DNA of 31,162 nt from IMG/VR virus record IMGVR_UViG_2582580984_000003; one strand, given 5' to 3'. The notes under the pieces were generated by a model. That model was not told the origin of the DNA, did not search any database, and saw nothing but the letters and a program-made list of their open reading frames with translations. The stretch is from a virus (taxonomy: Duplodnaviria > Heunggongvirae > Uroviricota > Caudoviricetes). The position numbers and the translations under genes were made by a program. Each line of letters starts with the position of its first letter. The first letter of the stretch is position 1. This document shows positions 20,832 through 25,646 of the stretch, piece by piece.

Positions 20832-21038
20832 CTTCATTTTCACTTTCTTAAATCTAACGACAGATGGCTAACATTTAAGTATTGTGAAATATTATCAAAT
20901 GTAATCATCATTGATTTACAAAAGATACATTTTGCCCCGAAAGGATTTCTGTCAGAAACATCAAAAGATGATGTTCTATACTGAGAACCATGGCAACACG
21001 GGCATCTAAAGTGAATATGGTTTGTAATATTTTCTACC

Positions 21039-21251
21039 TCAAAGTGCCACTACATGAACAGCTGCAGGGCCTTTAGGTCCGTTCTCAATACCAAATTCGA
21101 CTTCCTGATTCTCAGTTAACGTTTTGAAATCGTTGCTCTGAATAGCTGAGAAATGCACAAACACATCTTTGCTACCATCTTTCGGCGTGATGAAACCAAA
21201 ACCTTTTTCAGGGTTAAACCATTTCACTAAACCAGTCATTTTGTTAGACAT
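21039..21251 (-). CDS. cspI: Cold-shock protein (CspA family, CspI-like)
   Basis: 70 aa from ATG at 21251; RNP1 KGFGFI and RNP2 VFVHF motifs; ~360 bp AT-rich upstream leader typical of csp genes. Confidence 0.9.
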
Positions 21252-21614
21252 CATTATTACCTTTTGAAGAAGTTAGCCCTTGGGCAGAATGGTCCGAAAA
21301 AAAATATCAGAGAGAAAAACCAACAAGGAAATCTCAAGAGGTACAAATAATAAAATTATAACAATGACTGCTTCAGATAATTTTGTAACAAACCAGAACA
21401 CCATTAACGCATGATTAACCAACCATAGCAAGGATTACTTTTGTAAAGAAAAACACACGAATGAAACAATAGCTTTATTTATTAATAAAACGTGTCATTC
21501 TGTCTAATGACCTTTTATCTTACCCTTAAGATTTCAAGGATTTTGACTCATGGAAGAGTCCTTTTTATTTAAATTTCACATTCAGCGCTAAAAATAATCC
21601 GATTTAATATTAAT

Positions 21615-22954: not shown

Positions 22955-23170
22955 TTACTCTCCTCTCGCAGCCTTACGCCTGTCTTCTTTAATCTTGAAA
23001 TAAAGATTTGTCAGGTACGTCAGCAGGCCAAATACCAGGCTACCCAGCACACCTATTGCTGCCCACTGTGAGGGCGTGACTTTATCGAGCAGCTGTAAAA
23101 ACCAGTAGCCAGCACTGCCTGCGGAGGTGCCGTAGGCAATGCCTGTTGAAATTTTGTCCATGGATTTCAT
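22955..23170 (-). CDS. S: Pinholin (phage 21 S-type) with dual-start motif
   Basis: ORF trimmed to MKSMDK..: ATG at 23170 and ATG at 23161 (antiholin/holin dual start), GGAGGTG RBS; two transmembrane segments; C-terminus ..[13 protein letters not shown]. Confidence 0.85.
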
Positions 23171-23274
23171 AGCCTCACCTCCGCACGGAACGGATGGCAT
23201 AGTTATTATGTGTAGGCTTCCAGACACATCAATCAGAGCCTTAATTGATATATATGCTGGAGACGATGCAATAT

Positions 23275-23296
23275 AAAAAGCTCGCCGTAGCGAGCT
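23275..23296 (-). terminator. Intrinsic terminator downstream of the lipoprotein cargo genes
   Basis: Minus-strand AGCTCGC-TACG-GCGAGCT hairpin followed by TTTTTAT. Confidence 0.5.
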
Positions 23297-23421
23297 AATA
23301 AAATGTATTTCTCTGATATTATGTTTATTTGTATTAGCTCAGACTTGACATCACAGGTTTCGTATATAGAACATCATCAAATCTGTCAGTTTGCTATGAA
23401 TGAGATATAGTAATTGAAGAG

Positions 23422-23817
23422 CTAACCTCGCATGTCAAAGCCAGATTTCTGAAAATCTCTGTAGACTTCCGGATTGTTGAAGGCCGGAAATTTGGCTTTA
23501 TGAGCTGCGGACTTTATCGCTTCGCAATAGGCTTTATCACCGTTACTGGTAGATATTTTTAACGCCGTGCCATCCTGAGAGAATTCCATATGCAACCTGC
23601 ATTTTTTCCCTTTCCAGTTATGCGGCTCATCAAGTTTGGCATTAATTGCAGCTCTGATTCCCCGCGCTTGCGCCCCCCATTCATCCTGATCATCCCAGCG
23701 TCCTGAACTGCAACTACCTGTAGCAGTAGTTTTGTGGCAATCTGAAGGGTGTAAAGGTGTGCATCCCGCAACAAAACCGACCCAAAAAGTCAACATAACG
23801 ATTTTCTTTAATCCCAC
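23422..23817 (-). CDS. Lipoprotein with TolA C-terminal (domain III)-like domain
   Basis: 131 aa; GTG start at 23817 with GAGGAG 6 nt upstream; signal peptide with lipobox VAGC; C-terminal region (GKKCRLHMEFSQDGTALKI..GD..YCEAI..A..KA.FP....PEVYRDF) resembles the TolA C-terminal domain and its paralog at 23968. Confidence 0.75.
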   Translation of the reverse strand: MGLKKIVMLTFWVGFVAGCTPLHPSDCHKTTATGSCSSGRWDDQDEWGAQARGIRAAINAKLDEPHNWKGKKCRLHMEFSQDGTALKISTSNGDKAYCEAIKSAAHKAKFPAFNNPEVYRDFQKSGFDMRG

Positions 23818-23967
23818 TTCTTGCTCCTCAATCCATTAAAATCTCAGCAATAGTAGTTGTTACGTCCGCCACTGGCTCAGAGCTGACTATCCGCTAAATT
23901 TAGCTCAGTGCCGTAGTTGTGTCAGAACAAACCTAAGCCGAAACCGTTTATTACAAAACAATAAATA

Positions 23968-24396
23968 TCAGGGTTTAAAATCCAGCACCCCATTTTGAAA
24001 TACTTTATATACTTCCGGCGAAGGGGGGGCAGGTATATCAACATTCTTTATCGCATTCATCGCTTCACGACATAAATCGAGGTCTCCACTTTCTCTTTTA
24101 ACCTCCAGTAGAAGGCCATTCGGGGCCATATGCATTCTCAGTGTACACTCTTTTCCTGAATACTTACTCGCATCCCCGAACTGTTTTTCGATGGCGCTCT
24201 TGATTTGATGGGCATACAGACGGATATCCTCACTAACATCAGAAGTACGTTCAGATGAACTCACATACTGTGTCTCTATTGCTTTATCGGAGTAATATGA
24301 TGTACGGTCATGATAATTTGTCGATACAGCATCAGTGCACCCGATAATAATCCCACTAATAATCAACGTAAGAATTGATGCGCTACGAAAACCCAT
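23968..24396 (-). CDS. Lipoprotein with TolA C-terminal (domain III)-like domain
   Basis: 142 aa; ATG with GAGGAAAA RBS; lipobox IIGC. C-terminal 80 aa (YAHQIKSAIEKQFGDASKYSGKECTLRMHMAPNGLLLEVKRESGDLDLCREAMNAIKNVDIPAPPSPEVYKVFQNGVLDFKP) closely matches the E. coli TolA C-terminus as recalled (YAGQIKSAIESKFYDASSYAGKTCTLRIKLAPDGMLLDIKPEGGDPALCQAALAAAKLAKIPKPPSQAVYEVFKNAPLDFKP). Confidence 0.8.
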   Translation of the reverse strand: MGFRSASILTLIISGIIIGCTDAVSTNYHDRTSYYSDKAIETQYVSSSERTSDVSEDIRLYAHQIKSAIEKQFGDASKYSGKECTLRMHMAPNGLLLEVKRESGDLDLCREAMNAIKNVDIPAPPSPEVYKVFQNGVLDFKP

Positions 24397-24425
24397 TTTT
24401 CCTCACATATGTCATATAGTAAAGG

Positions 24426-24455
24426 ATTATATATACCGTTGTTTTGGACGCTCAA
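24426..24455 (-). promoter_or_regulatory. Candidate sigma70 promoter for the TolA-like lipoprotein gene
   Basis: Minus-strand TTGAGC-N16/18-TATATAAT about 30 nt upstream of the RBS. Confidence 0.35.
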
Positions 24456-24929
24456 ACAGCGAATCAGATCAAATAAAACGCACATTTGTTAACATTTACA
24501 CAAAGTCTGCGTGGGATATTCTGAAAGAATATCCATAATGTGGAGAGAATCTATTGAAGTGCATGGTGCCGGGTGCCTCCCGGTGAATTCAGTACCAGCA
24601 CCTGAATCCGCGATTATCCCATATACCTACTCGCTGATTGCCCCTCCGCACAGGGGGATTCACCATGCCAGTTTCTTTTAACAAACTCCCCGCAAACCAG
24701 AGAACAGTCAACCGCCTGAATTGTGAAGTATTTAAAAATTTCTCCCGCTAACTGATACCCGGCTAACAGTCTGGCGTTTTCTTTTTCAGCAACGGGAAAG
24801 CAACAACCACCACACCCGCCACCAGCACACCGTCAGCCAGCACTGACATTATCCGGCTGCTGCAATGCCATTCACAAAAACAGTAAGCAATCACTTTTTA
24901 CCGTAACAGGTGATAATCCAGATATGTAT

Positions 24930-25283
24930 CTACCCCAGATGAGTAATCCGAAGTTCATCCATACCACAGGTCCTGGCTATTCTGTTGTACTCCTGAACAA
25001 GAGCAAATAATTCTGAATTAGCAACCATGAACTCATCGCAAACCCTCTGTATAGCATCACTATTCAGAATAATAACGTCTCTTCCCGAAAGACGATCAGG
25101 AGCACAGAACAAAACTGTCAAACGGCTGAAGGCCTTTGCTCGTGCTGCATTGACTATATCAATACGCTGCCTAAGGATGAAACACCCCGACGCCTCATCA
25201 ATATTCACTCTACCCACACCATATGAATGATAAATATTTAATGCTGAAAAAACCATTAGACCGTATAACAAACACTCAATCAA
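24930..25283 (-). CDS. Hypothetical protein (uncertain coding status)
   Basis: 117-codon ORF beginning with TTG; first ATG at 25256 has no clear RBS; lies immediately downstream of the tRNA genes in the Q-S cargo slot. Confidence 0.3.
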   Translation of the reverse strand: MIECLLYGLMVFSALNIYHSYGVGRVNIDEASGCFILRQRIDIVNAARAKAFSRLTVLFCAPDRLSGRDVIILNSDAIQRVCDEFMVANSELFALVQEYNRIARTCGMDELRITHLG

Positions 25284-25570: not shown

Positions 25571-25646
25571 TGGTGGCCCTTGCTGGATTTGAACCAGCGA
25601 CCTGGCGATTATGAGTCGCTCGCTCTCACCACTGAGCTAAAGGGCC
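25571..25646 (-). tRNA. tRNA with anticodon CAU (ileX/ileZ-like tRNA-Ile2; Met not excluded)
   Basis: 76-nt cloverleaf: acceptor GGCCCTT/AAGGGCC, anticodon loop CTCATAA, T-arm GCTGG-TTCAAAT-CCAGC, 3' CCA; very similar to E. coli ileX as recalled. Confidence 0.85.

Follow-up and report, generated by a model that had tools for sequence, protein, structure and literature searches.

Lipoproteins carrying a TolA domain III in the late-region cargo of an Escherichia coli lambdoid prophage, possible decoys for TolA ligands

The tip of the TolA protein is a common entry handle of filamentous phages of the Ff, If1 and CTX types and of many colicins, and no mobile-element gene copying it has been characterised in the literature searched. 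The 31,162-nucleotide (nt) stretch of DNA analysed here (IMG/VR record IMGVR_UViG_2582580984_000003, called the window in what follows) is 100% identical to Escherichia coli chromosomes and 99.9% identical to phage mEp460_ev081, and carries on its minus strand, ahead of the lysis genes, two genes (P1 and P2) for small lipoproteins whose C-terminal portions resemble that tip (domain III of TolA, or TolAIII). The question raised by this locus is what such lipoproteins are and what they could do for the element carrying them. The first part has a plain answer, since P1 and P2 put a hub domain already known from the host to a different use, as a lipoprotein borne by mobile elements. As to the second, they may act as decoys for TolA ligands. 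The two genes and the parts of their products are as follows.

23968..24396, minus strand: P1, ATG start, lipoprotein precursor of 142 amino acids (aa)
codons 24396..24337, minus strand: P1 signal peptide and lipobox IIGC, with Cys20 (read from the sequence)
P1 residues 21-50, minus strand: disordered linker (predicted local distance difference test, pLDDT, below 50 in the AlphaFold2 (AF2) model)
P1 residues 51-142, 24246..23971, minus strand: TolA domain III (Pfam, phmmer, AF2)
23422..23817, minus strand: P2, GTG start, lipoprotein precursor of 131 aa
P2, minus strand: lipobox VAGC with Cys19, then a Cys-containing linker, C27...C36, GRWDDQDEWG (read from the sequence)
P2 residues 40-131, 23700..23425, minus strand: TolA domain III (Pfam, phmmer, AF2)
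23818..23967, minus strand: P1-P2 intergenic spacer of 150 nt, with the P2 Shine-Dalgarno sequence and a weak promoter-like site inside

A first-pass annotation, made by a model from the sequence, had described both genes as lipoproteins with their own ribosome-binding sites (RBSs) and a TolA-like C-terminus. Both open reading frames (ORFs) were found on the minus strand where it had placed them, preceded by TGAGG at 24405..24401 (4 nt 5' of the ATG of P1) and by GAGGAG at 23829..23824 (6 nt 5' of the GTG of P2). The RefSeq model of P2 starts at a later ATG and counts 124 aa (window 23422..23796), which drops the Lys-Lys n-region, and the GTG start is therefore the better one. On inspection of the sequences, both precursors present a charged n-region, a hydrophobic h-region and a lipobox of the type [LVI][ASTVI][GAS]C, namely MGFRSASILTLIISGIIIG-C20 (IIGC, the precursor running ...IISGIIIG-C20) in P1 and MGLKKIVMLTFWVGFVAG-C19 (VAGC, precursor ...FWVGFVAG-C19) in P2, the two lipoboxes being those reported earlier. 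Retention of lipoproteins in the inner membrane follows the rule of Asp at position +2. Because Asp is absent from this position in P1 and P2, with Thr in its place after the lipobox Cys, both are predicted to be sorted to the outer membrane after lipidation. The earlier description of the products as membrane-anchored was right as to the lipoprotein type and too loose as to the membrane.

The identity of the C-terminal domain is supported by sequence profiles and by fold. With the Pfam family TolA_C (PF06519, gathering cut-off 25), P1 scored 80.9 bits (E 8e-23) and P2 54.6 bits (E 1.3e-14), so that the profile search proposed in the first-pass annotation placed both proteins above the gathering score and far above chance. 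In phmmer searches against the TolA chains of the PDB, P1 residues 55-142 aligned ungapped on E. coli TolA 334-421 (E 1.9e-27), in line with the near-colinearity recognised earlier in the upstream copy, and P2 residues 51-129 aligned with an E of 5e-9; identity to TolA 334-421 amounts to 51/88 for P1 (58%, gapless) and 27/88 for P2 (31%). The AF2 models showed a domain of order H-E-E-H-H-E with a pLDDT of about 90 (P1 residues 51-142, P2 residues 40-131), the N-terminal 40-50 residues being disordered in both proteins. When the models were superposed on TolA domain III with Foldseek, which had also been proposed as a check, P1 matched 3qdr_A with a root-mean-square deviation (rmsd) of 1.0 A and P2 matched 3qdp with 1.1 A, the target-normalised TM score being 0.92 in both cases (reference entries for the domain: PF06519 and PDB 1TOL, 1S62, 3QDP/3QDR and 2X9A). 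Moreover, the two Cys columns of TolAIII are invariant, P1 and P2 included. The domain is unambiguously closest to TolAIII, not to that of TonB. The refutation foreseen in the first-pass annotation, a lack of significant resemblance to TolA domain III in profile or structure, is clearly not what was found.

Despite sharing this fold and the disulfide cysteines, and in the case of P1 a colinear sequence up to the LDFKP end, the two proteins are not TolA. They are devoid of domain I, the transmembrane anchor coupled to TolQR, and of the helical domain II, having instead a lipoprotein signal and a short disordered tether; the absence of the TolQR-coupled anchor means that they are not energised by the proton-motive force. 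TolA is anchored in the inner membrane, whereas P1 and P2 are predicted to reside in the outer one, and the tolA gene belongs to the tol-pal operon, whereas the kin of P1 and P2 occupy prophage, plasmid and orphan chromosomal sites. In the window, the surroundings are Q, tRNAs, DUF3927 and holin-lysozyme-Rz genes in place of a tolQRA-tolB-pal-cpoB cluster. Accordingly, the full-length model PRK09510 is matched at profile positions 293-386 of 387 only, with scores of 105 (P1) and 54 (P2), the cut-off being 213. The TIGR02794 threshold of 59.45, on the other hand, is exceeded by P1 (73.9), which is why this protein carries the RefSeq/PGAP (Prokaryotic Genome Annotation Pipeline) name "tolA: cell envelope integrity protein TolA", and this name is misleading, domain III alone being present. 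The domain annotation of P1 and P2 was already public; what is new is that they do not form an obligate pair, that they are not phage-specific, and how each of them is distributed.

P1 and P2 are paralogous and only 28% identical, and their families differ in breadth. The P1 family is narrow, with 46 clusters in which every named member comes from E. coli or Shigella. By blastn, 898/5426 complete E. coli genomes carry it, nearly always as a chromosomal gene, with the exact module of the window present in identical form in 774/5426. A divergent P1 allele (65% identical) is found in other lambdoid prophages, again between Q and the holin but unaccompanied by P2, where it adjoins TfpB, an AraC-type regulator and nanS-p. 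In one further allele (P0143), a divergent N-terminal half is joined to a C-terminal half that is one residue off the P1 of the window, a hybrid suggesting recombination inside the gene. The clusters P0130, P0151 and P0160 have either a frameshift near the C-terminus or a swapped N-terminus. Recent capture of host tolA as the origin of P1 was also considered and rejected, since blastn with the P1 gene recovered only the 898 carriers and not the tolA gene of every genome; host tolA being undetectable with it at the DNA level, P1 is not a recent DNA copy.

The P2 family is broad (370 clusters, 78-89% identity) and extends over Citrobacter, Enterobacter, Klebsiella, Raoultella, Serratia, Leclercia, Pantoea, Rouxiella and other genera. 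Conservation spans the entire mature protein, which is near-invariant across genera, and includes in residues 19-48 the invariant linker motif C-x-PLHPS-x-CHKTTA-x-G-x-C-x-SG-x-W-x-D-x-DEWG; this linker, with its extra Cys pair C27 and C36, is more than a spacer, though AF2 models it as disordered. In 28/28 chromosomal loci outside E. coli and Shigella, the P2 relative was solitary, with no P1-like gene nearby. The chromosomal settings varied, with copies found after nrdDG beside GmrSD/HEPN, beside an ars operon, or among ordinary regulators and enzymes; one copy adjoins both GmrSD and HEPN genes. Besides, about 600 plasmids carry an 88%-identical P2 copy (tblastn), among them pO157 and resistance plasmids of the I-complex. 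Six conjugative plasmids of this complex were inspected (IncK2/Z, IncI1/B/O; five of them typed MPF_I), and in all of them the homologue lies 67 nt 3' of a nikB-type relaxase gene, and a variable region rich in resistance genes follows it (88% identical copies; loci L050 6965-7396, L053-L056 and L045 8001-8432). In pO157 of E. coli O157:H7 SS52 (L049 6965-7396), the gene is found beyond ssb, psiB, psiA and hok, upstream of toxB, and no publication on it was found in the literature searched. An 89%-identical member, at the level of the plasmid alleles, was also seen in two 8-kb contigs (L004, L005) binned into metagenome-assembled genomes of Lachnospiraceae and Treponemataceae; these contigs may be mis-binned.

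The P2 family is mainly a chromosomal and plasmid gene of Enterobacterales and not specific to prophages. It is true that the 99%-identical P2 allele had P1 upstream in 80/80 viral contigs; these 80, examined among 152 confirmed IMG/VR matches, all represent the same prophage, with P1 directly upstream of P2. The idea of a dedicated tandem pair of prophage lipoproteins, with which the first-pass annotation started, did not survive this comparison, given that both families occur singly and that P2 relatives are widespread outside prophages. An obligate two-gene system was rejected on the same grounds, P1 alleles standing alone in other prophages and P2 relatives standing alone on chromosomes and plasmids.

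Joining of a lipoprotein signal to TolAIII goes beyond these two families. About 310 more plasmids, mostly from Klebsiella, gave a distant match at 35% identity (tblastn), and the one of them inspected carries a third lineage. In the Klebsiella pneumoniae plasmid pMR0617ctx (IncFIB/FII, MPF_F, conjugative; L051 6217-7246), the third-lineage gene comes right after that of a secreted thioredoxin-fold (CxxC) protein, and its 144-aa product combines the lipobox ITAC, followed by Ser at +2, with a TolAIII domain whose last residues are LDFRL. An exhaustive profile search of 1.84 billion representatives returned 579 proteins at E <= 1e-3; among the best 150 of the 579 there were 78 short ones (100-170 aa), of which 58 have a lipobox, and Asp at +2 was found in 0 of these 58. 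Isolated phages contributed little, mEp460_ev081 being the sole match among 50,697 phage records (tblastn), and BFVD yielded no viral TolAIII-like fold at E <= 1e-3. The PADLOC defence models did not match P1 or P2, and the sole match in PHROGs was family 5772, of "unknown function". The CP-933O gene EDL933_2012, labelled "tail fiber ... (TolA)", was reported to be 32-fold up on ciprofloxacin (PMC11125564); it was not used as expression evidence, and no TolA-like gene was found in the 50-kb EDL933 prophage stretch inspected.

The simplest explanation for such genes would be that they are inert pieces of tolA, gained by illegitimate recombination and passively carried. That PGAP calls P1 just "TolA" and that some P1 database alleles (the above-mentioned P0130, P0151 and P0160) are frameshifted or truncated could be taken in this sense. 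However, purifying selection is seen on both genes. The ratio of nonsynonymous to synonymous substitution rates (dN/dS, Nei-Gojobori) of P2 was 0.07-0.15 against eleven homologues with dS of 0.5-1.4, and that of P1 against its 65% allele was 0.37 for the whole gene, with 0.28 for the domain and 0.45 for signal peptide plus linker. These values indicate that both genes are maintained by selection, the constraint being strong on P2 while P1 is faster-evolving. In addition, intact lipoprotein signals were grafted onto the domain in two independent lineages as well as in 58/78 short relatives, the failure of the P1 gene to detect host tolA DNA means that the fragment is not recent, and the identical module has been retained in the 774 E. 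coli genomes mentioned above. Passive carriage is, therefore, essentially excluded.

Colicin A adds a strand to the TolA beta-strand 375-380, with cation-pi contacts at K368, K379 and K396, while a conserved hydrophobic cavity on the other side of TolA receives g3p, colicin N and the TolB N-terminus, and the importance of the TolA C-terminus has been stressed (PMC3365938). The TolB N-terminus engages TolAIII by parallel strand augmentation once the C-terminal element is displaced (PMC7066135). In P1, the colicin A edge keeps L375, L376, K379 and K396, with the changes K368H and P380R; helix 1 is identical to that of TolA at 12/17 positions and the C-terminal helix-strand at 10/14, with the same LDFKP end, P1 being least TolA-like in the exposed helix 2. 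This pattern is the one expected of a functional mimic of the TolA binding edges, as far as residue conservation can tell, and its mostly kept edges together with its faster evolution make P1 the better candidate for a true mimic. The C-terminal segment of P2, VYRDFQKSGFDM, has diverged from TolA and is invariant within the family, suggesting that the same site is tuned to a different, conserved ligand.

A model can be put forward in which un-energised TolAIII mimics tethered to the outer membrane compete for TolA ligands and so protect their carrier against Tol-dependent filamentous phages and group A colicins, a proposal that we consider plausible while giving it somewhat less than an even chance. 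In this model, the lipidated P1 and P2 would go to the inner leaflet of the outer membrane, where the tether of 20-30 residues would hold the TolAIII-like domain just beneath the membrane, uncoupled from the TolQR proton-motive-force motor. There the domain would capture the g3p-N1 of pilus-specific filamentous phages and also the TolA-binding epitopes of group A colicins as these emerge through the outer membrane. A ligand held by an un-energised and wrongly anchored copy would not be drawn across the periplasm, and the lysogen, or the plasmid host in the case of the relatives, would gain tolerance to Tol-dependent phages and bacteriocins. P2 would probably recognise one conserved ligand.

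Interference at the TolAIII-ligand interface is known to work, and this supports the decoy model. Periplasmic g3p-N1 or full-length pIII conferred colicin A resistance and lowered phage uptake by 4 logs, effects attributed to sequestration of TolA (PMC10424213). There too a mobile-element gene interferes at the periplasmic interface, as P1 and P2 are proposed to do. The arrangement proposed for the latter would be the mirror image, because the Ff protein is a ligand mimic that masks the receptor whereas P1 and P2 would be receptor mimics titrating the ligand. The g3p of phage If1 has likewise been crystallised with TolAIII as coreceptor (PDB 2x9a). Carriage on conjugative plasmids of the I and F types, whose hosts are exposed to TolA-dependent phages, is suggestive in the same direction. 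Pili of both plasmid types attract filamentous phages. The moron-like traits of the module, the selection on both genes and the chromosomal copy beside GmrSD and HEPN genes speak for the model as well. Soluble periplasmic TolAIII has itself been reported to confer tolerance to colicins and phages (Levengood-Freyermuth et al. 1993).

Several points weigh against ligand capture of this kind. Among the colicin A contacts, P2 keeps only L376 and I378, and it has lost all three cation-pi lysines, at an identity to TolA of only 31%; with most of these contacts gone, a simple TolA-mimicking decoy, plausible in the case of P1, becomes less so in that of P2. The strong conservation of P2 across genera would be better explained by a conserved host ligand than by diverse invaders. 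The known affinities of TolAIII are modest, about 1.3 uM for colicin A (PMC3365938) and 40-250 uM for TolB (PMC7066135), which means that a decoy has to be abundant or well placed. P2 relatives live in ordinary metabolic neighbourhoods, unlike defence islands. Soluble periplasmic TolAIII reportedly also produced a leaky tol phenotype (Levengood-Freyermuth et al. 1993), so that a decoy may be costly. A late lytic role, too, would be in keeping with the site directly 5' of the lysis cassette. Finally, full-text searches of the literature, several of them spoiled by surname matches, turned up no characterisation of prophage or plasmid lipoproteins with a TolA domain, as the first-pass annotation had stated when it knew of no characterised function.

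The divergence of P2 leads to an explanation in which the ligand lies outside the Tol system. The TolA/TonB-type fold could then serve as a general peptide binder working by strand augmentation. P2 in particular may dock on some other conserved constituent of the envelope, be it an outer-membrane protein, a peptidoglycan enzyme or a part of a conjugation or secretion apparatus, and the resulting fitness gain would have nothing to do with Tol-dependent invaders. P1 would then be a distinct lineage, closer to TolA, that lies next to P2 by chance. A P2 surface unlike TolA at most of the mapped contact positions, a mature protein near-invariant across genera down to its Cys linker with dN/dS of about 0.1, and the breadth of the short lipoprotein-plus-TolAIII design, with its lipobox in 58/78 short representatives, are all compatible with such a role, and the placement of the P2 homologue in I-complex plasmids, 67 nt beyond the relaxase gene, may point to a part played in transfer. 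Yet positive evidence for any alternative ligand is absent, the domain is closest to TolAIII and not to TonB, and the combination of prophage, plasmid and chromosomal settings speaks against a function specific to conjugation. A ligand outside the Tol system is rather improbable.

The late lytic role hinted at by the position of the genes calls for a closer view of the locus. The following features of the minus strand delimit the insert and its putative signals.

23162..24556, minus strand: entire cargo module, ~1.4 kb, delimited by comparison with related prophages
24426..24455, minus strand: sigma-70 promoter-like site 5' of P1 (TTGAGC, 18-nt spacer, TATAAT; 10/12 consensus, top-scoring)
23925..23897, minus strand: weak promoter-like site in the P1-P2 spacer (9/12 consensus)
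23279..23296, minus strand: intrinsic-terminator-like hairpin AGCTCGC-TACG-GCGAGCT, then TTTTATATTG, between P2 and holin (consensus scan)
24507..24697, minus strand: Rfam STnc100 element, small-RNA-like, directly upstream of the module as context (cmscan 114 bits, gathering score 47)

The host element is an mEp460/Qin-like lambdoid prophage, in which the module has Q and the tRNAs on one side and the holin on the other. Along the minus strand one finds the Q antiterminator gene (PF03589, 25790..26611), tRNA-Ile2, tRNA-Arg, a 117-codon ORF, DUF3927, STnc100, P1, P2 and the terminator-like hairpin, followed 3' by a P21-type holin, DUF1327, a lysozyme and a DUF2514 Rz-like protein, in agreement with the position between tRNA genes and holin originally given. 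In blastn comparisons with Stx (Shiga toxin) phage 75/02, an EDL933 prophage and two other lambdoid prophages, the shared flanks stop at ~24557 upstream and resume at ~23161 with the holin, the backbone common to them being the tRNA block, the STnc100 5' part (24686..24557) and the holin. The module has a GC content of 0.412 against 0.503 for the window. In sister prophages, the nanS-p (SASA) esterase gene follows the same junction and takes the place of the module, and one prophage lineage has a P1 variant upstream of nanS-p; the module is, therefore, exchangeable late-region cargo. As a discrete insert of deviating GC, absent from otherwise syntenic relatives, 23162..24556 agrees with the earlier view of a moron-like unit in the cargo region of the late operon.

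Two details of that view need adjustment. Sites resembling the promoter and the terminator ascribed to the unit are present at the places named; they are consensus matches only, and such sites are not significantly more numerous in the region than in shuffled sequence (promoter-like, 11 versus 6.3 +/- 2.9; terminator-like, 4 versus 2.0 +/- 1.6). The consensus scan detected no terminator-like site between P1 and P2. The second detail is the equation with the slot of stx, which is correct for the Q-to-holin cargo region as a whole. The exact place is that of the nanS-p esterase, downstream of stxB, as seen in phage 75/02, where the shared junction lies downstream of stxB and nanS-p comes next. 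The STnc100 5' part (24686..24557) is 91-99% identical to DNA that closely follows stxB in 75/02 and closely precedes nanS-p in an EDL933 prophage; by this comparison it marks a conserved junction beyond which the late-region cargo varies.

Such a location makes it conceivable that P1 and P2 target the Tol-Pal system itself. The copies would bind the TolA box at the TolB N-terminus, or Pal, and block the TolQRA-driven release of TolB from Pal, loosening the link between outer membrane and peptidoglycan once Q switches the late operon on; the outcome would be easier rupture of the outer membrane at lysis, or more vesiculation, with tolerance to colicins and phages as a side effect. The module does lie in the Q-dependent late transcript, directly 5' of holin, endolysin and spanin genes, and it is established for lambdoid phages that a Q-modified polymerase is expected to pass through a terminator-like hairpin of this kind. 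The TolB N-terminus is conserved in enterobacteria, and this would account for purifying selection on P2 across genera. Its binding to TolAIII by strand augmentation (PMC7066135) involves the C-terminal region that corresponds to the best-conserved part of P1. On the other hand, lysis genes are absent near the chromosomal and plasmid P2 relatives at the loci inspected, the sites resembling a promoter and a terminator would point to expression when no lytic cycle is under way, and constitutive poisoning of Tol-Pal would be costly for a gene of a plasmid backbone. Sister prophages also have the same lysis cassette without the module, which is therefore not needed for lysis. Sabotage or modulation of Tol-Pal, the chief competitor of the decoy model, is, on balance, unlikely, if worth keeping in mind.

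Returning to the capture of TolA ligands, other small outer-membrane lipoproteins are known to shield their carrier from incoming phages or DNA, such as Llp of phage T5, Cor of lambdoid phages and TraT of the F plasmid. P1 and P2 are like them only in being small lipoproteins of mobile elements. Llp, Cor and TraT act by binding or masking a receptor in the outer membrane (FhuA, OmpA) and none of them copies a periplasmic hub domain of the host, nor is there any sequence relation to P1 and P2, as can be seen from the PADLOC result and from PHROG 5772, a family with no function assigned. Regarding the lambdoid morons (stx, the nanS-p esterase, bor and lom), the P1-P2 module shares with them the Q-to-holin cargo region, in which 75/02 has stx upstream of nanS-p, and differs in gene content; its GC is low and it is flanked by promoter-like and terminator-like sites.

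Extending the proposal beyond this prophage, it is tentatively suggested that stand-alone TolAIII lipoproteins of the outer membrane might form a widespread and unrecognised class of "hub-domain decoys" in prophages, I- and F-type plasmids and chromosomal islands of Enterobacterales, conferring broad tolerance (to pilus-specific filamentous phages, group A colicins and klebicins) through epitope capture at the inner face of the outer membrane; we would rate this as somewhat doubtful. The P1 and P2 genes occur often in E. coli and plasmids of clinical relevance. Should they encode decoys, some of the natural differences in sensitivity to colicins and filamentous phages would be accounted for, conjugative plasmids would have a means of making up for the risk of phage attack that their own pili bring, and the genes would be relevant to phage and bacteriocin therapeutics directed at E. 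coli and Klebsiella. If they are instead poisons of Tol-Pal, they would offer natural probes of the TolA-TolB force-transduction step.

A few other features of the window deserve mention. The 117-codon ORF between the tRNAs and DUF3927 (24930..25283, minus strand) is 100% conserved in relatives and has no annotation by PGAP, nor any match in Pfam or PADLOC. At 25571..25646 on the minus strand, ARAGORN calls a tRNA-Met (CAT anticodon) where RefSeq has tRNA-Ile for an identical gene; the latter label would fit an Ile2 tRNA with lysidine modification, a type characteristic of the late regions of lambdoid phages. Lastly, an Rfam cspA thermoregulator match (20993..21409, minus strand; 110 bits) lies 5' of a prophage cspI-like cold-shock gene, after which come homologues of ymcF, ynfN and gnsB, as in Qin.

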